IMG/VR virus record: IMGVR_UViG_648276656_000008
Length of the DNA stretch: 15,267 bases
Source: a virus
Lineage: Duplodnaviria; Heunggongvirae; Uroviricota; Caudoviricetes
Direction: 5' to 3' (one strand)
The position numbers and the translations under genes are program-made. Below the pieces are notes generated by a model. That model was not told the origin of the DNA. It did not search any database and saw only the letters and a program-made list of their open reading frames with translations. Each line of letters starts with the position of its first letter. The stretch's first letter is position 1. Shown here piece by piece: positions 4,043 through 15,266 of the stretch.

Positions 4043-4263
4043 CACCATGACTCCGCCTTTACAGGTAAACCATCACGACCGAGGAAGACTTTAATCATGC
4101 GGTCAGTAATGCATGTTTTTGTGGTCAGGTTACGAATATATAGTTTTCGCTTTTTAATATTGTTTGCCGAGGCAATATATGTCCGGCCTTCATGAAGAAC
4201 ATAATCGCCAGGAGTCACACACTGACGTGGTATTTCATCAGTTCCGAAGTGATGTGCAATCAT
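4042..4263 (-). CDS. kilR: KilR (FtsZ-targeting cell division inhibitor of Rac)
   Basis: 73-aa product [29 protein letters not shown]... ending KAESW; start taken at the internal ATG 4263 to give the canonical length. First gene of the leftward kilR-ydaE-racC-recE-recT block. Confidence 0.88.
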
Positions 4264-4704
4264 AATTATCTCCATTTTTACAAATGAACTTTGTTGATGC
4301 GGTGCCTGGTGCCTCCAGGTGACTGCAACCAGTTAACAATTACAGTCGGCTTTCCCACCCAAACCAATAAGGACTAACATGACTTTTAACTGTGCCACGT
4401 GCGCTTAGCCGCATTCACCGCATCACAAAATTCACTTTAAAAAGGGCGGACATCAGCCGAACTTCAAGAAAAAAACTGATGCCGCCAGGACTACACACAG
4501 CAATGTCGTTATTTACAACCGGAGGCGCACTCCCACCATTTAAATTTAACAGACAAGACCGACTCTTTATGGATATCGGAAATGCGCCTTCGTGTTGTGC
4601 CCGGTTTTATTTCACCACCTCCGGGCTTCGGTGGTCTCGGCTATACCCCTACAGCGAGAGCTTGTGTTAACATTTCAATACCCTTACAGTTGAGAGTTAT
4701 TGAT

Positions 4705-6994: not shown

Positions 6995-7437
6995 TGTAAC
7001 GCTGCGAGCGTTACAAGGTGAAAACAAATGGCTTCAAACTGGATAAAGCTCGAAGTTATTACGCCGGATAAGCCGGAAATATTCAGGCTTGCTGAGATTC
7101 TGAATATTGATCCAGATGCCGCATTAGGGAAAGTCATTCGCTTCTGGGCATGGGCGGATCAACAAATGATAGACGGTAACGCAGAGTGTAACGCTCGAGG
7201 CGTTACAAAAAGTGCAATAGACCGTATCACTTTTATGGCTGGTTTTGCTGATGCGTTAATTCAGGTTGGATGGCTGGTCGAAAGTGATGGAGTGCTTTCA
7301 CTACCAAACTTTGAGCGTCATAACGGAAAAAGCTCGAAAAAACGGGCGGTTACAAACGAGAGAGTTACAAAAATACGCGAACTGAAGCGAAAAGGTAACG
7401 CTGCCAGCGTTACACAAACGGATCAAAAAGCGTTACC
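6995..7437. repeat. Dispersed palindromic iteron-like sites (TGTAACGC-N5-GCGTTACA) upstream of and inside ydaU
   Basis: Near-identical 21-bp palindromes at 6995-7015, 7187-7207 and 7394-7414, plus half-sites GGTAACGC at 7175-7182, GCGTTACC at 7430-7437 and GTTACAAA at 7349-7356 and 7364-7371. Confidence 0.6.
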
Positions 7438-7816
7438 AGAGGAAGAGGAAGAGGAAGATATAAATACTGATCTCCCCCTAAATCCCCCTCGGCAAAAACG
7501 AGCGTCTAAACAATTCGAGCCGGAGGCCATTGCTCTGCCCGACTGGTTGCCAGAAACACTCTGGAATGAGTGGGTCCAGTTCAGGCAGGCATTGCGAAAA
7601 CCGATTCGAACGGAGCAGGGCGCTAACGGGGCGATACGGGAACTGGAAAAATTCCGCCAGCAGGGTTTTACCCCTGAGCAGGTGATTCGACACAGCATCG
7701 CCAATGAATACCAGGGCTTGTTCGCGCCGAAAAGTGTTCGGCCTGAGACGTTGCTCCGACAGGTTAACACTGTCTCGTTTCCGGACAGTGCGATCCCGCC
7801 AGGCTTCAGGGGGTAA
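7028..7816 (+). CDS. ydaU: YdaU-like replication initiation protein (lambda O analog)
   Basis: 262-aa ORF just upstream of the DnaC-like ydaV; contains an acidic EEEEEED linker and the iteron-like palindromes. Start is the first ATG after an in-frame stop at 7019-7021. Confidence 0.75.
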   Translation: MASNWIKLEVITPDKPEIFRLAEILNIDPDAALGKVIRFWAWADQQMIDGNAECNARGVTKSAIDRITFMAGFADALIQVGWLVESDGVLSLPNFERHNGKSSKKRAVTNERVTKIRELKRKGNAASVTQTDQKALPEEEEEEDINTDLPLNPPRQKRASKQFEPEAIALPDWLPETLWNEWVQFRQALRKPIRTEQGANGAIRELEKFRQQGFTPEQVIRHSIANEYQGLFAPKSVRPETLLRQVNTVSFPDSAIPPGFRG

Positions 7817-7822
7817 CTGACC

Positions 7823-8569
7823 ATGAAAAATATTGCGACAGGCGGCGTTCTGGAACGTATCCGCAGACTGGCCCCGCCACATGTAACCGCGCCATTCAGG
7901 ACGGTGGCGGAGTGGCGCGAGTGGCAACTTGCAGAAGGCCAGAAACGTTGCGAGGAGATCAATCGCCAGAATCGTCAGTTGCGGGTGGAAAAAATTCTGA
8001 ATCGCTCCGGCATCCAGCCGTTGCACCGCAAATGCTCGTTTTCGAATTACCAGGTGCAGAACGACGGCCAGCGATACGCGTTGAGCCAGGCGAAATCCAT
8101 CGCAGATGAACTGATGGTCGGGTGTACAAATTTTGCGTTTAGCGGAAAACCTGGTACCGGAAAAAACCATCTGGCGGCGGCTATCGGGAATCGCCTGCTG
8201 AAAAACGGTCAGACAGTGATTGTGGTTACCGTGGCTGATGTTATGAGTGCTCTACACGCCAGCTATGACGACGGGCAATCAGGCGAAAAATTTTTGCGGG
8301 AACTGTGCGAAGTGGATCTGCTGGTTCTTGATGAAATTGGCATTCAGCGCGAGACAAAAAACGAGCAGGTGGTACTGCACCAGATTGTTGATCGCCGGAC
8401 AGCGTCGATCCGCAGCGTGGGGATGCTGACAAACCTGAACTATGAGGCCATGAAAACATTGCTCGGCGAGAGGATTATGGATCGGATGACCATGAACGGC
8501 GGGCGATGGGTGAATTTTAACTGGGAGAGCTGGCGCCCGAATGTTGGTCAGCCAGGAATTGAGAAGTAA
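7823..8569 (+). CDS. ydaV: YdaV, DnaC-like helicase loader (AAA+ ATPase; lambda P analog)
   Basis: 248 aa with Walker A GKPGTGKNHLAAAIG and Walker B LLVLDEIG. Confidence 0.88.
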   Translation: MKNIATGGVLERIRRLAPPHVTAPFRTVAEWREWQLAEGQKRCEEINRQNRQLRVEKILNRSGIQPLHRKCSFSNYQVQNDGQRYALSQAKSIADELMVGCTNFAFSGKPGTGKNHLAAAIGNRLLKNGQTVIVVTVADVMSALHASYDDGQSGEKFLRELCEVDLLVLDEIGIQRETKNEQVVLHQIVDRRTASIRSVGMLTNLNYEAMKTLLGERIMDRMTMNGGRWVNFNWESWRPNVGQPGIEK

Positions 8570-8591
8570 TTTTTACCGGGAGGAAATTTTA

Positions 8592-9317
8592 ATGGAGACC
8601 GTTTTTGACGCACTGAAAGCAATGGGAAAAGCCTCTTCCCAGGAAGTGGCAGCACGTCTGGGAATGACCCGGGATGAGGCGATTAACGAGCTGTGGAAAC
8701 TGAAGCGTCGTGGGGAAGCTGATAACAAGGGCCCGATGTGGTGGTTGACTCAAACCGACGAAAACGCATCTGTAGCACAGGCTTCTAAAGTGACAGCGCA
8801 AATGCTGATCGAGGCGATTGAACAGCATGGCCCTAAAGCGGCTGATGAACTTGCACTGATATTCAGAATTACTTCCCGCAGGGTGAACTCATCGCTGGCT
8901 ATGGCCATCAGCAAAGGTCGTCTGATTCGCGTAAATCAGAACGGTAAATTTCGTTACTGCCTGCCGGACGGTAATTTACCAGCAGAGCCGAAAGTTGTAT
9001 CGGTAGTGAAAACACCTGGTAAAGGCTTTCCTCAGCCAGCCGGTGTTGCGTTACCAGTACAGGAAGCGGCAACACAGGAAGAAATTAAAACAGATACTGT
9101 GGGGGACATTGTGCAGTCACTACCATCGTTCACTGAAACGCGAGCCAATGACCTGATTATACCATCGCTGCAAATGGCAAACCGCGAACTGCGCCGGGCG
9201 AAAAGTTATGTCCAGAAGTGGGAGCGAGTCTGCGCCGCGCTGCGTGAGCTGAACAAGCACCAGGATATTGTCCGTCAGATTGTCGATTCCTCCAGTCGTA
9301 TTGTGTCGGAAAAGTGA
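8592..9317 (+). CDS. ydaW: YdaW-like prophage protein, full length (241 aa)
   Basis: Start METVFDALK... is preceded by GGGAGG; the track ORF begins 17 codons upstream without a Shine-Dalgarno. Named by position after ydaV; I recall the K-12 copy as truncated. Confidence 0.55.
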   Translation: METVFDALKAMGKASSQEVAARLGMTRDEAINELWKLKRRGEADNKGPMWWLTQTDENASVAQASKVTAQMLIEAIEQHGPKAADELALIFRITSRRVNSSLAMAISKGRLIRVNQNGKFRYCLPDGNLPAEPKVVSVVKTPGKGFPQPAGVALPVQEAATQEEIKTDTVGDIVQSLPSFTETRANDLIIPSLQMANRELRRAKSYVQKWERVCAALRELNKHQDIVRQIVDSSSRIVSEK

Positions 9318-9333
9318 TTCTAGGGGAGGGCTT

Positions 9334-9756
9334 ATGGCAAAAGTATTAACACAGGAAGAGCGAGAAAAAATTAAAGGGCAGATTGTTGATCTCGTACGCC
9401 AGAGTGGGCGCGAGACGTTAAGGCAACTGGAGGCCAAGACAGGGGCGACAAGATATCTGATGAGCATTCTTGCCAGAGAGTTGGTTGCCAGTGGCGATGT
9501 ATACAACTCTGGCTATGGGTTATTTACCTCTGAACAGGCTCGTAAGGACTGGAATAACGCCCGCAAAAAACTATCCAGGGCAAAGGTGAAAAAAACGGTT
9601 GTGGTTGATCCTGACCTTATCTGGTCATTACCAGACGGAGAAATACGCCGATATGACGGGCGTCTGAATATAATCTGTAGCGAGTGCCGTAAGAGCGAAG
9701 TTATGAAGCGTGTACTGATGTTTTATCGAGGAAGTATCCAGGAATTTATTCGGTAA
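9334..9756 (+). CDS. Hypothetical prophage protein (140 aa)
   Basis: Start MAKVLTQEEREKIKG... is preceded by GGGGAGGG. No family recognised. Confidence 0.7.
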   Translation: MAKVLTQEEREKIKGQIVDLVRQSGRETLRQLEAKTGATRYLMSILARELVASGDVYNSGYGLFTSEQARKDWNNARKKLSRAKVKKTVVVDPDLIWSLPDGEIRRYDGRLNIICSECRKSEVMKRVLMFYRGSIQEFIR

Positions 9757-9892
9757 GCAAAATCAAAATGTAATCGCTCAAGTTTAAGTTGGTGTATCTA
9801 CGGCGCAGAGCCATCGCCTCATCTGGCACTGCGCTAAAATCAAATTTAGTTCCACTCTTTATTTTGTATCTGCTAAAACGCTACATAAGATT

Positions 9893-10165
9893 TTACTTTT
9901 TTAAAGAATAAGGGAATATGTGCACCATATTGGAGGCTAGTGGATATATTCCTATGCTACGAGTTGTCTTTTTTAGTTGATCTATGCTTGCTTCTTTATC
10001 GGGAGCCCGGCCTCCCCACACTGTAACTCCCTCAGGTATATCGATTGGGCGACTTTTGTTTTCATCTGTGATTTCAATCGTTTCCCCATTATTAAGCGTA
10101 ATAATCAACGATGACACGTCCAGGTGTTGTGTATTCCCATTTTTATTTTTAATATCTATTTTCAT
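9893..10165 (-). CDS. Hypothetical protein (90 aa), orphan in AT-rich cargo
   Basis: Only sizeable ORF in this AT-rich stretch; a TTATTA-17bp-TATAAT promoter-like element lies immediately upstream on the minus strand, but there is no clear Shine-Dalgarno. Confidence 0.45.
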   Translation of the reverse strand: MKIDIKNKNGNTQHLDVSSLIITLNNGETIEITDENKSRPIDIPEGVTVWGGRAPDKEASIDQLKKTTRSIGIYPLASNMVHIFPYSLKK

Positions 10166-10435
10166 GGCTATTTCATTATATGTTATCTGTGCTGGAGTAA
10201 TAAGTTTACGGTATTAAGAAGCATTTTGACGAAACAATCAACTGACTTATCAGCTAAGGTGGCATTGTAATGCGATCTGATTGGTATCATCAGGACGCTG
10301 TTCAAAAAAGGGGGATTAGTTGATCTTGAAATCTTGCTCAAAATGTGTAGCCTCTCGTTTAACTGCCAACTTTTTGGGGCAGTACACTCTGATGCTACAC
10401 AACTTGCAAGTTTCATTACCCCGACGTAAACATTT

Positions 10436-11104
10436 ATGACAGTTGCTGATTTCAAACGTCCTAAGTTGGAGCTCCCAAACGGGGCAAACAAACTACTATT
10501 ACACTCTTGTTGTGCACCATGTTCCGGTGAAGTGATGGAGGCTCTTCAGGCCTCAGGAATCGACTACACCATCTTCTTCTATAATCCGAACATTCATCCT
10601 CAGAAAGAGTATTTGATTCGTAAGAATGAGAATATTCGATATGCTGAACAACATGGTGTACCGTTTATCGATGCTGATTACGACACTGACAACTGGTTTG
10701 AGCGAGCCAAAGGAATGGAATGGGAGCCCGAACGTGGGAGGCGTTGTACTATGTGTTTTGACATGCGTTTTGAACGGACGGCGCTGTACGCCGCTGAAAA
10801 TGGTTTCAGTGTGATCAGCAGTTCACTGGGCATTTCTCGCTGGAAAAATATGCAGCAGGTTAACGACAGCGGACGGCGAGCTGTCGCACATTATCCGGGC
10901 ATGGTGTACTGGGATTATAACTGGCGCAAGCAGGGAGGCTCGTCCCGCATGATTGAAATCAGCAAACGCGAACAATTCTATCAGCAGGAATATTGTGGTT
11001 GCGTGTATTCACTTCGCGATACCAATTTACACCGCAAATCCCAGGGACGCCCTCTTATCAAAATTGGTCAACTCCACTACGGTAAAGAAGAAGGGCAGGA
11101 ATGA
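10436..11104 (+). CDS. queH: QueH-like epoxyqueuosine reductase (DUF208 family)
   Basis: 222-aa product with the N-terminal [11 protein letters not shown] motif, a central RCTMCF and a C-terminal YCGCVYS cysteine cluster, the pattern I associate with DUF208/QueH. No clear Shine-Dalgarno before ATG 10436. Confidence 0.65.
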
Positions 11105-11413
11105 TTTTTACATTACGTCAACAGAGTGTCACAACGTTTCTATATATGGTATGCCGACCGTAATTTTCGAATCATCATGACTAATAGGCAGGTCACCTAT
11201 GCCAGCAATGACCTGCTCATCTTGAAATTAGCAGAAATCTTGTAGCTATGATGTAGCTCAAAATAGTTTTTCATTCTTTTACCTGATGTCTGTTCCTGGC
11301 TGAAAACAGACTGTATTATTTAATTACGCACCACTGACACTTGTTTATTGAAGTAGTGAGTACAAAGCCACATATTTATCAGTGTATGTATACGTCAAAA
11401 ACAGGAGATTGTT

Positions 11414-11503
11414 GTGCTGGTTCTGAAGTGTGCGTTAGCAATAGTGGCTGTGGTGGCAATTTATTGCCTTGTTGTTGTTCTTATGGAGCGACTTTCTGAT
11501 TGA
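11414..11503 (+). CDS. Putative small hydrophobic peptide (29 codons, GTG start)
   Basis: AGGAG at 11403-11407, 6 nt before GTG 11414. Product (M)LVLKCALAIVAVVAIYCLVVVLMERLSD is one predicted transmembrane helix with a charged tail. Not in the ORF track. Confidence 0.35.
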   Translation: MLVLKCALAIVAVVAIYCLVVVLMERLSD

Positions 11504-11644
11504 TTACATACTGGCTAAAAAAAGCGTTTGCCTGGTTTATCTTTGTCCGGCAAGGTGCGCTCATTAATCTGAAGTAAATTTATTTCTTAAGTATTCAGAT
11601 TACTTCTTATGGTCGAAGTCTCCTGGCAATGTAGAACCAAAATA

Positions 11645-11686
11645 TTTACAAAAAGGAGACCCGTCGGGGATAGCCCTGCCGGGTCT
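11645..11686 (-). terminator. Intrinsic terminator downstream of the DUF1971 gene (between convergent genes)
   Basis: Stem AGACCCG(11657-11663)/CGGGTCT(11680-11686); on the minus strand it is followed by CTTTTTGT. Confidence 0.5.
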
Positions 11687-11715
11687 GACTGTTAAAGCAT
11701 TTTTAATATGATCAT

Positions 11716-12054
11716 CTATTTTTTGGTGCTATAGACTTTTTCGCCTGAGAAGTCTGGAGCGACCCAAAAGTTAATATTAAACTGAGCATCATCGCTTAGT
11801 TCAACACGGTGCCAGTATTGTGGTGGGCTTGTTGCAAAAGAGCCAGCATTAATAACTACTTTTATCTCTGGTTCAGTAGTATTCTCATCAGCAAAACCAT
11901 AATATGTTACAGTGCCTTCCATTACGCACAACTGCCCAAAAACACCTGCTGCTGTATTATGATGTGTTAATAATGCTGAAGGTACGTTCTCTTTTGTGAA
12001 GAACGGAGTTGAGCGTTTGATTACCCAATCTTTAGGAATTCTCTTGTGTGTCAT
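11716..12054 (-). CDS. DUF1971-family protein (YeaR/TehB-N-terminal-like)
   Basis: 112-aa product MTHKRIPKDWVIKRSTPFFTKE...YYGFADE...FNINFWVAP resembles E. coli YeaR as I recall it. GGAGGTG lies 5 nt upstream of ATG 12054. Confidence 0.65.
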   Translation of the reverse strand: MTHKRIPKDWVIKRSTPFFTKENVPSALLTHHNTAAGVFGQLCVMEGTVTYYGFADENTTEPEIKVVINAGSFATSPPQYWHRVELSDDAQFNINFWVAPDFSGEKVYSTKK

Positions 12055-12705
12055 AACCACCTCCTATAAAACATGCATTATGAATGCTCCTTTTGAGGAG
12101 TTATGTCAAGCTGTTATGAAACACATAATTGATATGTTGATTAGAGGAGTAGATAGAATAAATATGGTTGTTTTTGGTGTAACTACTTGTTTTTCTTTTG
12201 GTTTATGCATTCTGTGTGTTAGGAATAAGTTATTAAAGTTTAATCAAGAAATCTCGATGCATTCCACATAGATTACTGTTACTGAACCTTATTGTGTGCA
12301 TTAGTTGTGTTCTGAAATTTCAGCTTAATTATTTATGATATATTTTTTAACGATAAATGTTTTCCCAGGTGAAAGACAGTTGGGAATAAGATAAGTAATA
12401 TATCATTAATCCTGATTATTCCCAGGTACCTTTACTGTGCATATAAATAAATCATATATGCATCAAATAGTGTAAAGGCATCCTTTTAGATATGTCTTAT
12501 CAAATGTTAATGACTTGAGTGGGAAACATGATTCCAGCAACTTATCATGTGGCTACTTTATAAAAATAATGCCCATATAAAACAACAAGCGAAAAGGATT
12601 ACGGATAAAAAAGGAGCGAGATGTGCAAACTTGTTATTTTCCATGTTTAACCACCTTAAATAATTGATGATGACGGGATGATTGCATCTGTAATGCTTTT
12701 ATTGA

Positions 12706-12740
12706 AATGTTATGATAAAAAAGAACTTTTTCATAACATT
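12706..12740. repeat. 35-bp near-perfect palindrome in ORF-poor AT-rich DNA
   Basis: Arms AATGTTATGA (12706-12715) and TCATAACATT (12731-12740) are perfect reverse complements; the 15-nt centre is itself partly symmetric. Confidence 0.6.
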
Positions 12741-12924
12741 AAAATGTAATTTAGCTAATCGTTTTTAATAATAAGTGTCGTATTTCTATCCTTGTACCAG
12801 CTATTTGATATGTAGTGTTTGTTCATGCTATGTGGGGCTTTACACCATAGCCAGTTTATTTATACTTTATTCGTCAGCCTGAACAACTGGCATCTGCTGC
12901 ACTGCGCCATAGAGAGATTGAGAA

Positions 12925-13524
12925 ATGGCGCATATACAACTGGTCAAACAAACTTCTTCTGGTTTACTTCTCCCGGCGACGCCGGAGAGTTGTGATTTTC
13001 TGCATCAAATTAAAATAGGCGAGTGGATACACGCTGATTTTAAGCGTGTGCGTAACTACGCATTCCACAAGCGTTTTTTCAAACTCCTGCAACTGGGATT
13101 CGATTACTGGACTCCGGTCGGTGGGGCGATCACGCCTCGCGAACGAGAACTGCTGTCTGGTTTCGTTGATTACCTGTGCGAATCAGTTGGTCGGGAACAC
13201 ACGCCAGCCCTGAGTGATGCCGCAGAGCAATATCTGAATACAGTTGCGACACGCAGAACCCGGGATGCGGCATTGCTAAAGTCGTTTGAGGCTTTTCGCG
13301 AGTGGGTAACCATTCAGGCTGGATTTTACACCGAACATTTTTATCCGGACGGTAGCCATGGGCGTCGGGCGAAATCCATCGCTTTTGCGAATATGGACGA
13401 AACCGAGTTTCAGCAGGTTTATAAATCTGTTCTGAATGTGCTGTGGAACTGGATTCTGTTCCGTAAATTTTCCTCTCTGGAACAAGTCGAAAATGTGGCC
13501 GCGCAGCTGCTGGAGTTTGCGTAA
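12925..13524 (+). CDS. DUF1367-like lambdoid nin-region protein (199 aa)
   Basis: Full track ORF MAHIQLVKQTSSGLLLPATPESCDFLHQIKIGEWIHADFKRV...; family assignment is from memory. Its stop overlaps the next start (TAATG). Confidence 0.6.
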   Translation: MAHIQLVKQTSSGLLLPATPESCDFLHQIKIGEWIHADFKRVRNYAFHKRFFKLLQLGFDYWTPVGGAITPRERELLSGFVDYLCESVGREHTPALSDAAEQYLNTVATRRTRDAALLKSFEAFREWVTIQAGFYTEHFYPDGSHGRRAKSIAFANMDETEFQQVYKSVLNVLWNWILFRKFSSLEQVENVAAQLLEFA

Positions 13525-13814
13525 TGGTGGATTTACGTAAAGCGGCGCGGGGGCAGATGTGCACCGTCAGAATTCCTGGCTACTGCAATCACGATCCGGA
13601 AACGTCTGTGCTGGCGCATTACCGACTGGCGGGAACGTGCGGAACAGCGACAAAACCACACGATATGCAGGCGGCGATTGCCTGTAGCTCATGCCACGAT
13701 CTAATCGACGGGCGGGTAAAAACCAGCGATTACACCAAAGAAGAATTACGCCTGATGCATGCAGAAGGTGTTTTTCGCACACAAGAAATCTGGAGAAAGG
13801 AGGGATATTTGTGA
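13524..13814 (+). CDS. YbcO-like protein (DUF1364, putative nuclease)
   Basis: 96-aa product MVDLRKAARGQMCTVRIPGYCNHDPETSVLAHYRLAG...ACSSCHDLIDGR closely resembles DLP12 YbcO as I recall it, with the same length and conserved Cys/His. Confidence 0.75.
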   Translation: MVDLRKAARGQMCTVRIPGYCNHDPETSVLAHYRLAGTCGTATKPHDMQAAIACSSCHDLIDGRVKTSDYTKEELRLMHAEGVFRTQEIWRKEGYL

Positions 13815-14353
13815 TTTACCCAACGAATACAGGAAAAAGCGGAGAACACCTTCGTCTCGCCACGCTGGAAAGTGTCTGGATTCAGGGCAAACTGCGTATG
13901 TGGGGGCGCTGGTCGTATATTGGCGGTGGCAGGTCAGGAAATATGTTCAATCAGTTGTTGGCATCCAAAAAATTGACGAAAACAGCCATCAATGAAGCCC
14001 TGCGCAGAATGAAAAAAGCGGGAATAGAGAAAGCTGAGCTGGAAGCGTTTTTGAGAGAGATGATCAACGGCAAGCAAAAGAGCTGGCTGGCGCATTGTAC
14101 TGATGCAGAGGCGTTATGTATTGATCGAGTCATAAGTGAGGTGCTGGCAGAGCATCCAGGATTGATTAGCGTCCTTCGGCAACGGTATGAGGGGCGGGGG
14201 ATGACCAAACGCAAAATGGCTGAATTGCTAAATGATGCACACCCAGAGTGGTGTTTTAGCACATGCGAAAAGCGAATTGCTAATTGGTTGGCCGTTGCTG
14301 AGTATGCGCTATACATTCCCATGCGAGAATCATTCGCTCAAAAAACGGCTTGA
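13811..14353 (+). CDS. Putative late-gene antiterminator (Q-like), positional call
   Basis: 180 codons from GTG 13811, preceded by AGGAGGG and overlapping the ybcO-like stop (GTGA). Last ORF before a promoter-like region and a strong terminator; contains Cys pairs (HCTDAEALC, WCFSTC). I do not recognise the sequence as a specific Q family. Confidence 0.45.
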   Translation: MIYPTNTGKSGEHLRLATLESVWIQGKLRMWGRWSYIGGGRSGNMFNQLLASKKLTKTAINEALRRMKKAGIEKAELEAFLREMINGKQKSWLAHCTDAEALCIDRVISEVLAEHPGLISVLRQRYEGRGMTKRKMAELLNDAHPEWCFSTCEKRIANWLAVAEYALYIPMRESFAQKTA

Positions 14354-14859: not shown

Positions 14860-15226
14860 GCATTTGAAACAAGCCTTATTGTATTGCGGCACTGGCGTAT
14901 TTTTTATTACGTGGGAGCAGGTTGTTTTGGAAAAGCATTCTGTTCTCTGGCTATGATTTGAGGCCAGGTGTAGCCTCAGTGCTGATTTTTTTACGACAGC
15001 AGAATGGTGCATTATCGGTGGAGATTTTGTATTTCCTGGCAGGGTCGGTGATGCATCATTCTGGTGTTGTAAAAGCACCACAGAGGTGTTCCTCAGTGCG
15101 AGGGTGGTTTATATAGTGGTTTAGCGGGGAATCACAATATTTGTTGTAGGGACAGATATTTCGGGAGGCACCCGACACCTCGATTTTTATTACAATTAAA
15201 ATGATTTATCTTATACATTGACCAAA

Positions 15227-15266
15227 CCCCCCCTCTTGCGGGGGTTTTTTTTTTTTTTTTTTTTTT
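15227..15266 (+). terminator. Strong intrinsic terminator with an unusually long T tract
   Basis: C-run 15227-15233, loop TCTTG, G-run 15239-15244, then 22 consecutive T (15245-15266). The window ends one base later. Confidence 0.6.

Follow-up and report, generated by a model that had tools for sequence, protein, structure and literature searches.

What fills the AT-rich segment located between the DUF977 gene and ninB in a Rac-type prophage of Escherichia coli, and is it inherited as one piece? The segment, hereafter the block, spans positions 9757–12924 of the IMG/VR virus record IMGVR_UViG_648276656_000008, which was analysed over its entire length of 15,267 nt (the window; all coordinates refer to it). 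An earlier note, made from the sequence alone, had viewed the block as a moron or accessory insertion, and as the part of the window where a new function is likeliest to reside. In Rac-type E. coli prophages the DUF977-ninB interval is a cargo slot whose content varies widely, and the block lodged in it is made of six modules distributed independently of each other, not of one unit. The interval is quite probably prone to recombination, and in this window it would have taken up, piece by piece, accessory genes which are independent of each other, for the most part self-contained, and serve the lysogen, not the propagation of the phage. This reading takes into account the differing frequencies of the modules, the residence of homologues in unrelated contexts, and the lack of matches to defence models. 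The two larger genes, queH and a DUF1971 gene, are assigned by similarity to families with known roles, in tRNA queuosine maturation and in the NsrR nitrosative-stress regulon, respectively. We infer that the slot genes are expressed in the lysogen, that the enzymes they encode are active, and that the host draws a physiological benefit from them.

The frequency of the modules was determined in 5426 complete E. coli genomes. The full block, including the segment which carries the 90-codon gene orf90, is present in 43 genomes only, and parts of the block were found in 1817. The orf90 segment is confined to genomes carrying the whole block. By contrast, queH was identified in 1047 genomes, the element carrying the mini open reading frame (ORF) s29 in 1901, the DUF1971 gene in 457, and the terminal module 6 in 1175. 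The slot was surveyed in parallel in IMG/VR, where 80 contigs feature a NinB at least 96% identical, and 57 of them, having DUF977 upstream, were used. The DUF977-to-NinB interval measures 1.7–8.5 kb in these contigs, and is organized in more than 30 architectures, including 130 clusters of cargo ORFs. Only 3 of the 57 contigs feature the window-type arrangement. The block is therefore far from being conserved in nearly all Rac-like prophages. The notion of an accessory insertion holds as far as the slot is concerned, and fails for a single insertion, as the six modules have different distributions. In three genomes (NZ_CP116970.1, NZ_CP075716.1, NZ_CM169499.1) an otherwise identical block is split by an IS3-family transposase.

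Slot cargo is diverse in nature. Sixty cargo ORFs measuring 160 amino acids or more were chosen as representatives and searched against PADLOC and Pfam, and matches were found to the PADLOC models AbiL, AriA, mad3 (mads_3), NsnB and type II methyltransferases, as to the Pfam families GmrSD_N, SIR2_2, NACHT NCH1, YobI-ATPase, A_deaminase and KilA-N. In strains EC958 and 190 the slot houses queH and hokD; in the O157:H7 strain Z1825, queH is accompanied by neighbouring genes for a Dcm methylase and a NgoMIV-type restriction enzyme; in strain AR_0369, IetAS (annotated IteA/IteS) resides in the DUF977-ninB (or DUF968) slot. The earlier expectation that other prophages carry toxin-antitoxin or host-modulating cargo at this position is thus borne out by hokD, the restriction-modification pair and IetAS.

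In many respects the slot resembles the morons and hotspots of temperate phages, such as the P2/P4 hotspots (PMC9122126) and the morons described by Hendrix in lambdoid phages. Conserved genes, DUF977 and ninB, bracket variable cargo, the cargo of this block is lower in GC than the backbone, and the DUF1971 gene runs against the phage operon and has a predicted promoter, operator and terminator of its own. As in P2/P4-type hotspots, known defence systems are held in this slot by sister prophages. In contrast, the fill found here includes no recognisable defence gene. Its six pieces are inherited separately, and module 6 belongs to the backbone. Prophage moron and defence hotspots are already known as a kind (PMC9122126), and new here are the definition of the Rac-type slot and its module structure. 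A limited search of the literature retrieved no description of the Rac-type DUF977-ninB slot as a hotspot. In other strains, this interval is a rich place to mine defence systems.

The block measures 38.5% in GC content, the left (7028–9756) and right (12925–14353) flanks 50.5% and 49.6%, respectively, and the 3168-bp interval of minimum GC across the 15.3 kb begins at 9701. The AT-rich segment noticed earlier is therefore real, and differs in composition from both flanks. GC is unevenly distributed inside the block (queH 47.2%; DUF1971 gene 39.8%; gene-free 864 bp at 12061–12924, 31.5%; for orf90 see Table 1). queH is not compositionally foreign, as its GC content at third codon positions is 0.48, a value equal to that of the backbone. 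The ORFs reported in the earlier note, a 90-residue frame, queH, a 29-codon frame and a convergent DUF1971 gene, were all found, and the flanks are lambdoid as supposed. The window comes from a Rac prophage, and a 100% identical locus is present in E. coli 13TMH22. There, the block is preceded by DUF1627 and DUF977 genes, and followed by the DUF1367 (NinB), DUF1364 and DUF1133 (Q-like) genes. The left part of this prophage is annotated with intR, xisR, rcbA, ralR, recT, recE, racC, kilR, sieB, repressor genes, ydaT and replication genes, and the region to the right of the Q-like gene with tRNA-Thr, tRNA-Gly, lysis genes and trkG. Modules, genes and signals of the block are listed in Table 1.

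Table 1. Modules, genes and sequence signals of the block, ordered by position in the window
Feature	Position	Strand	Basis and remarks
Module 1, orf90 module	9757–10386	−	
orf90	9893–10165	−	90-aa ORF; ORF list, GC 37.7%
Module 2, queH module	10387–11108	+	
queH, coding sequence	10436–11104	+	Pfam PF02677, E = 1.2e-65
Module 3, s29 element	11346–11515	+	170 bp
Predicted s29 promoter, sigma-70-like	11348–11376		TTGAAG (11348–11353), 17-nt spacer, CATATT (11371–11376)
s29	11414–11503	+	29-codon hydrophobic ORF, GTG start; Shine-Dalgarno sequence and promoter upstream
Module 4, probable hok/sok vestige and predicted DUF1971 terminator hairpin	11516–11715		
hokW-leader-like stretch	11545–11581		Local alignment to phage mEp460 hokW leader
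Hairpin followed by T-run	11658–11685	−	T-run at plus-strand 11650–11657; read from sequence
Module 5, DUF1971 gene, operator and AT-rich spacer	11716–12556	−	
DUF1971 gene	11716–12054	−	PF09313, E = 3e-26; convergent with queH
NsrR-type operator (23 bp)	12070–12092		AAGGAGCATTCATAATGCATGTT (strand of the DUF1971 gene), 15 nt before ATG
Predicted −10 hexamer of DUF1971 gene	12082–12077		CATAAT, overlapped by the operator
Peak of variability in AT-rich spacer	12355–12450		
Module 6, backbone before ninB with s28, palindrome and promoter	12557–12924		
s28, possible ORF	12558–12644	−	28 codons, hydrophobic, MENNKFAHLAPFLSVILFACCFIWALFL; AAGGTGG Shine-Dalgarno 6 nt upstream, conserved
Palindrome upstream of s28	12706–12715, 12731–12740		Arms AATGTTATGA and TCATAACATT, 15 nt between
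Predicted sigma-70-like promoter	12839–12866	+	TTTACA, 16-nt spacer, TATACT; 58 nt before ninB

The s29 element, present in 35% of the genomes, is conserved at 77–100% identity. The encoded peptide, MLVLKCALAIVAVVAIYCLVVVLMERLSD, is predicted to fold as one hydrophobic helix. The GTG start is preceded by an AGGAG Shine-Dalgarno sequence, which is conserved across relatives along with the promoter hexamers (TTGAA(G/T)-17 nt-CATATT). Thirty distinct s29 sequences were sorted out of 105 viral contigs by a search pattern in which codons 1–6 were held fixed, and all of them measure 29 codons. Variable sites are distributed 9/6/19 among the three codon positions, and the mean ratio of nonsynonymous to synonymous substitution rates (dN/dS) is ~0.26. 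Purifying selection acts on s29. The gene is not annotated in any of 40 sampled records; a few others include it, under the name 'membrane protein' or, in the case of strain REL606, as a hypothetical protein.

s29 is physically linked to hok/sok. In 83 of 92 informative loci hok is found directly downstream of s29, the DUF1971 gene being the neighbour in the other 9, and in hok-bearing loci the hok promoter starts right behind the s29 stop codon. Where hok genes occupy the slot of lambdoid prophages (hokW-sokW, hokD), the gene upstream is usually s29, yet s29 lies outside the hok/mok/sok architecture described, and the published study on hokW-sokW makes no mention of it (PMC8621323). On these grounds s29 appears to be a real, essentially unannotated gene for a 29-residue membrane protein, normally located beside prophage hok/sok, and may act together with the hok module as a small modulator of the membrane. 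Against this assignment, searches of Pfam, PHROG, PADLOC and NCBIfam retrieved no homologue of known function. Where queH and hokD are combined, which is a common arrangement, queH is directly followed by the final 35 bp of the element (corresponding to 11481–11515 of the window), and the rest of s29 is gone. The 35-bp remnant is the junction left by a deletion or recombination, and hok/sok therefore persists at these loci without s29.

In the window, the hok partner of s29 would have decayed, and module 4 is a probable hok/sok vestige. A stretch of ~40 nt aligns locally to the leader of phage mEp460 hokW with a score of 29, a value reached by none of 500 shuffled sequences (17.3 ± 2.2), and an intact hok occupies the same position, beside DUF1971, in strain GN02461. 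The hairpin at the end of the module is similar to the one found 3' in hok mRNA, and is the predicted intrinsic terminator of the DUF1971 gene. Unlike functional hok/sok loci, the window-type locus includes no Hok ORF between s29 and DUF1971, according to tblastn searches with HokD and HokW, and the leader carries deletions; therefore the toxin-antitoxin system is predicted to be non-functional here. Two points weaken the assignment. The vestige is recognized by a single local similarity, and two MAFFT alignments of 11516–11715 to hok loci gave inconsistent registers. The latter were discarded, and only the local alignment with its shuffle control was retained.

A second mini-ORF, s28, resides in module 6. 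This region is found upstream of ninB, at ~75% identity, in many prophages lacking DUF1971 and the rest of the block, and is therefore viewed as backbone, rather than cargo. The claim that the whole block is cargo must consequently be withdrawn for its last ~370 bp. Module 6 is present in 22% of the genomes, is variable at ~6% of its sites when close relatives are compared, and carries no annotated gene in 15 of 15 sampled records. The 28 codons of s28 are kept in 24 of 24 distinct sequences, with variable sites distributed 6/8/12 and a dN/dS of ~0.31. The evidence that s28 is coding is moderate. A collection of 15 billion proteins includes none of these exact peptides. A pattern scan of the s28 region in one genome per species detected only Shigella flexneri and Escherichia ruysiae, besides chance matches in Firmicutes, and added no divergence by which the coding test could be refined. 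A promoter for s28 was considered, and dropped as unsupported by the sequence alone. In diverged variants of the palindrome upstream of s28, the arms can pair only as minus-strand RNA, by means of a G-U pair, which hints at a hairpin in the 5' untranslated region of a s28 transcript. On the opposite strand, the hexamers of the predicted promoter preceding ninB are invariant between prophage variants ~75% identical around it. From this promoter, the genes between ninB and Q would be transcribed without the need for pR. The AT-rich non-coding DNA of the block would correspond to the DUF1971 regulatory region plus the conserved backbone upstream of ninB. s29 and s28 are conserved mini-ORFs essentially invisible to current annotation, and are new here.

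The mini-ORFs raise the possibility that s29, and perhaps s28, are type I toxins controlled by antisense RNA, and that the region is a toxin-antitoxin module for stabilisation or abortive infection, rather than a set of fitness genes. Both are hydrophobic peptides of 28–29 residues preceded by a Shine-Dalgarno sequence, s29 is linked to hok/sok, the slot often holds type I toxin-antitoxin systems, and the palindrome variants upstream of s28 fit a structured minus-strand RNA. We nonetheless regard this possibility as rather unlikely. Neither a Rfam match nor a candidate antisense RNA was found for s29 or s28, the predicted mRNAs are ordinary in structure (z = −1.37 for s29 and −1.35 for s28, not significant in either case), and the Shine-Dalgarno sequence of s29 is not clearly sequestered. 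In addition, hok/sok works without s29 in the queH-hokD arrangement, the peptides are unlike known toxin families, and s28 is only moderately supported as coding. A related idea, which we hold as tentatively, is that prophage hok/sok loci have in s29 a protein partner overlooked so far, that s28 is maybe another overlooked small protein, and that both may be small membrane effectors of a new kind, involved for instance in the modulation of Hok toxicity, in superinfection exclusion or in abortive infection. If so, the slot would hold an unseen layer of micro-protein cargo.

The protein encoded by the DUF1971 gene of module 5 matches PF09313 with 91.8 bits, and is similar to PDB entries 3DL3 ('TehB', E = 2.8e-59) and 3BB6 (E. 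coli YeaR, E = 3.3e-25). It belongs to the same family as YeaR, STM1808 and the N-terminal domain of TehB. An AGGAGG Shine-Dalgarno sequence precedes the gene. In K-12, yeaR is among the known targets of NsrR (PMC5320621), and for this reason a weight matrix was built from 27 published NsrR sites (Table 4 of PMC5320621), which themselves score 11.8–31.6 bits. The top match of the window, at 17.6 bits, is the 23-bp sequence overlapping the −10 hexamer of the DUF1971 gene; the runner-up scores 13.4 bits, and 2.9% of random blocks matched by Markov model and composition reach 17.6 bits. Eleven other distinct upstream variants, from ~30 prophage loci, feature a NsrR site at the same position, scoring 20–28 bits (for example, AAGATGCATTTTTAATGCATGTT). 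In these alleles TATAAT is found at the centre of the site, and the Shine-Dalgarno sequence and the terminator are conserved too. The AT-rich spacer located further upstream is in part hypervariable.

Homologues reside in quite different contexts. In Salmonella, a homologue 79% identical is located after nhaB and dsbB, and features a near-perfect NsrR palindrome, AAGGTGTATATTAAATACACCTT, 25.8 bits, 27 nt upstream of the start. On gene order this homologue would be STM1808, and the prophage gene appears to be its counterpart. According to two reports which cite Karlinsey 2012 (PMC7527575, PMC7082413), STM1808 belongs to the NsrR regulon and has a role in virulence. The V. parahaemolyticus homologue starts 41 nt after the stop codon of norW, in an apparent norV-norW operon, with a gene for a hemerythrin-domain (YtfE-like) protein nearby, and that of Aliivibrio fischeri lies downstream of norV-norW, ~830 bp from norW. 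norV and norW are nitric oxide (NO) reductase genes, and this neighbourhood links the DUF1971 subfamily to NO detoxification. The homologues of Vibrionaceae differ in lying beside norVW, and not behind a NsrR site.

The window gene shares with yeaR an 11-1-11 NsrR operator located just upstream (PMC5320621), and differs in being cargo of a prophage slot instead of having a fixed place on the chromosome, in lacking a yoaG partner, and in having a weaker operator allele than its relatives. As the −10 region is embedded in the operator, the gene is predicted to be repressed by NsrR. Nitric oxide or nitrosative stress would induce it, and the NO-stress regulon of the host would gain a member. Features typical of morons were found in it: an own −10 region and operator, a Shine-Dalgarno sequence, a terminator, low GC and patchy presence. 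Altogether, the DUF1971 gene is a predicted autonomous, NsrR-controlled and NO-responsive moron. That prophage DUF1971 genes have a conserved NsrR operator is new here. NarL and FNR sites were also considered in the upstream region, and dropped as unsupported by the sequence. About 8% of the genomes carry a prophage STM1808-type gene, and prophages may therefore extend the host nitrosative-stress regulon, a possibility of relevance to the inflamed gut or the urinary tract. Two points speak against such a role for the copy analysed. The identification with STM1808 leans on gene order, and the NsrR site of the window is the weakest of the alleles, as is its CATAAT −10 hexamer, for which reason regulation by NsrR, or expression, may be impaired in this strain.

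The degenerate NsrR/−10 allele could also be taken as a sign that the segment is mostly decaying, H-NS-silenced junk, that is, AT-rich acquired DNA heading for loss. The low GC of the gene-free 864 bp, the probable hok vestige and the IS3 insertions inside the block fit this view, which we consider unlikely all the same, since queH, the DUF1971 gene and s29 are intact, the first two are annotated as complete in sampled genomes, and s29 is under purifying selection. The DUF1971 gene has also kept its operator, its Shine-Dalgarno sequence and its terminator, and module 6 its promoter hexamers, the sites varying among close relatives being few in this module.

The product of queH covers positions 1–174 of the 175 of the PF02677 (DUF208) profile, with 221.3 bits (cut-off 23.5), and aligns to QueH of T. 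maritima (PDB 7LC5) with E = 3e-22. The CCxPC, CxxC and CGC motifs are aligned, the cysteines being in register at residues 24–25 (CC), 104 and 107 (CxxC), and 187 and 189 (CGC). In the solved enzyme, these motifs are reported to bind a [4Fe-4S] cluster and an adjacent iron. The nearest relatives, 77–86% identical, are found in Erwinia, Gibbsiella, Photorhabdus, Providencia, Proteus and other Enterobacterales. queH is thus predicted to encode a canonical iron-sulphur, cobalamin-independent epoxyqueuosine reductase, and seems to be an ordinary enzyme acquired from other Enterobacterales. E. coli already has QueG, which depends on cobalamin, a cofactor not made de novo by this species. Therefore, the most economical function for queH would be the reduction of epoxyqueuosine to queuosine independently of B12, and this last step of tRNA queuosine synthesis would be freed from the B12 supply. 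The window copy differs from known QueH proteins in being prophage-borne in a species already having QueG.

The 1047 genomes carrying queH correspond to 19% of the total. The allele of the window is found in 43, an allele ~91.6% identical in 952, and distant plasmid-borne copies in 59. As many as 62 of the queH matches are places on plasmids, and the distant allele, as in the 68-kb E. coli plasmid NZ_CP027389.1, is ~74% identical over a short stretch. queH is located directly 3' of the DUF977 gene in EC958, Z1825 and strain 190, and one short annotated ORF separates the two genes in phage HannyBb. Only 25 of 50,697 phage records include queH, and HannyBb is the sole isolated coliphage among them. 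The gene matches phrog_3217, which PHROGs lists as of unknown function. The names of queH and of the DUF1971 gene are already in RefSeq annotation. In the literature searched, no discussion of E. coli prophage queH was found. As one fifth of sequenced E. coli carry prophage queH, queuosine maturation could be uncoupled from vitamin B12 in these strains. A functional link between queH and the DUF1971 gene, both being related to Fe or NO, was also considered, and rejected as the two co-occur in the window arrangement in 43 genomes only, compared with 1047 and 457 separately.

Some features of queH speak against a gene serving the lysogen. Typical moron features are only in part present, since GC is backbone-like and there is no clear promoter. 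No obvious Shine-Dalgarno sequence or own promoter precedes the gene, which may for this reason be expressed only from the pR transcript, in lytic growth. QueH might serve the phage, either in the modification of DNA with 7-deazaguanines, or in retuning tRNA decoding to phage codons during lytic growth. The orientation, shared with the early-right operon, and the common location after DUF977 fit this view. Against it, QueH acts on epoxyqueuosine bound to tRNA, the prophage annotation lists neither a transglycosylase of the DpdA/Tgt type nor queC, queD or queE, and the gene occurs in one isolated coliphage only. 7-deazaguanine pathways are in use by phages, but Hutinet et al. (2019) found no QueA, QueG or QueH homologues among the viruses analysed, including DNA-modifying ones (PMC6884629). 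A role of either kind in the service of the phage is judged very unlikely, and provision of a B12-independent enzyme to the lysogen is preferred.

orf90 is the orphan of the block. A TATAAT hexamer is found 9 nt 5' of the ATG, and no Shine-Dalgarno sequence is present, which together suggest a nearly leaderless mRNA. PGAP labels the product as hypothetical protein, and no match above family threshold was obtained in Pfam, PHROG, PADLOC or NCBIfam. The family is small and enterobacterial, and includes 14 clusters of full-length homologues, 61–100% identical, with 38 invariant columns, which argues that orf90 is a real gene. Elsewhere in enterobacteria (one of the organisms is annotated as Enterobacter) the homologues are solitary, and reside in ordinary chromosomal contexts among metabolic genes. 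An AlphaFold2 model built on a 10-sequence alignment had a predicted local distance difference test score (pLDDT) of 48.6, and was unusable. An exhaustive profile search retrieved only small uncharacterised proteins and a strand motif common to LapA/BapA repeats. Residues ~16–45 of orf90 (SSLIITLNNGETIEITDE...) resemble the repeated strand motif of the giant adhesins of LapA/BapA type. The similarity, a short strand motif, was not taken as homology of function. Tandem, two-copy forms of the orf90-like small protein exist elsewhere.

The earlier statement that the block matches no described defence system agrees with PADLOC-DB v2, in which no family was hit at E ≤ 0.1 by any of nine ORFs taken from the block and from its flanks; when the entire window was scanned with Rfam (E ≤ 1), no match was obtained inside the block. 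That some or all of the genes form a new anti-phage system, jointly blocking superinfecting phages, is highly improbable: orf90, s29 and s28 have no known function, and sister prophages hold IetAS, a restriction-modification pair, hokD, and AbiL, AriA, NsnB, GmrSD_N and SIR2_2 matches in this slot, but the modules are inherited independently, and are therefore not a co-selected system, queH and the DUF1971 gene have close chromosomal homologues in other genera, for DUF1971 in non-defence contexts (norVW, NsrR regulon), and orf90 homologues are solitary. Nothing suggests that the genes of the block act together, or points to a defence function for orf90, s29 or s28, and the idea of a hidden new defence system is set aside. 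The expectation that a new function is likeliest in this block is weakly favoured, novelty being limited to the unannotated mini-ORFs and one orphan gene.

Outside the block, the Rfam scan detected sub-threshold similarities to DicF RNA (39.1 bits, gathering threshold 48) and to STnc100 (35.5 and 32.9 bits, threshold 47). The DicF/STnc100-like sites (4444–4499 and 4256–4442 on the minus strand, 15056–15256 on the plus strand) fall partly in the early-left region, and partly beyond the tRNA genes on their downstream side.

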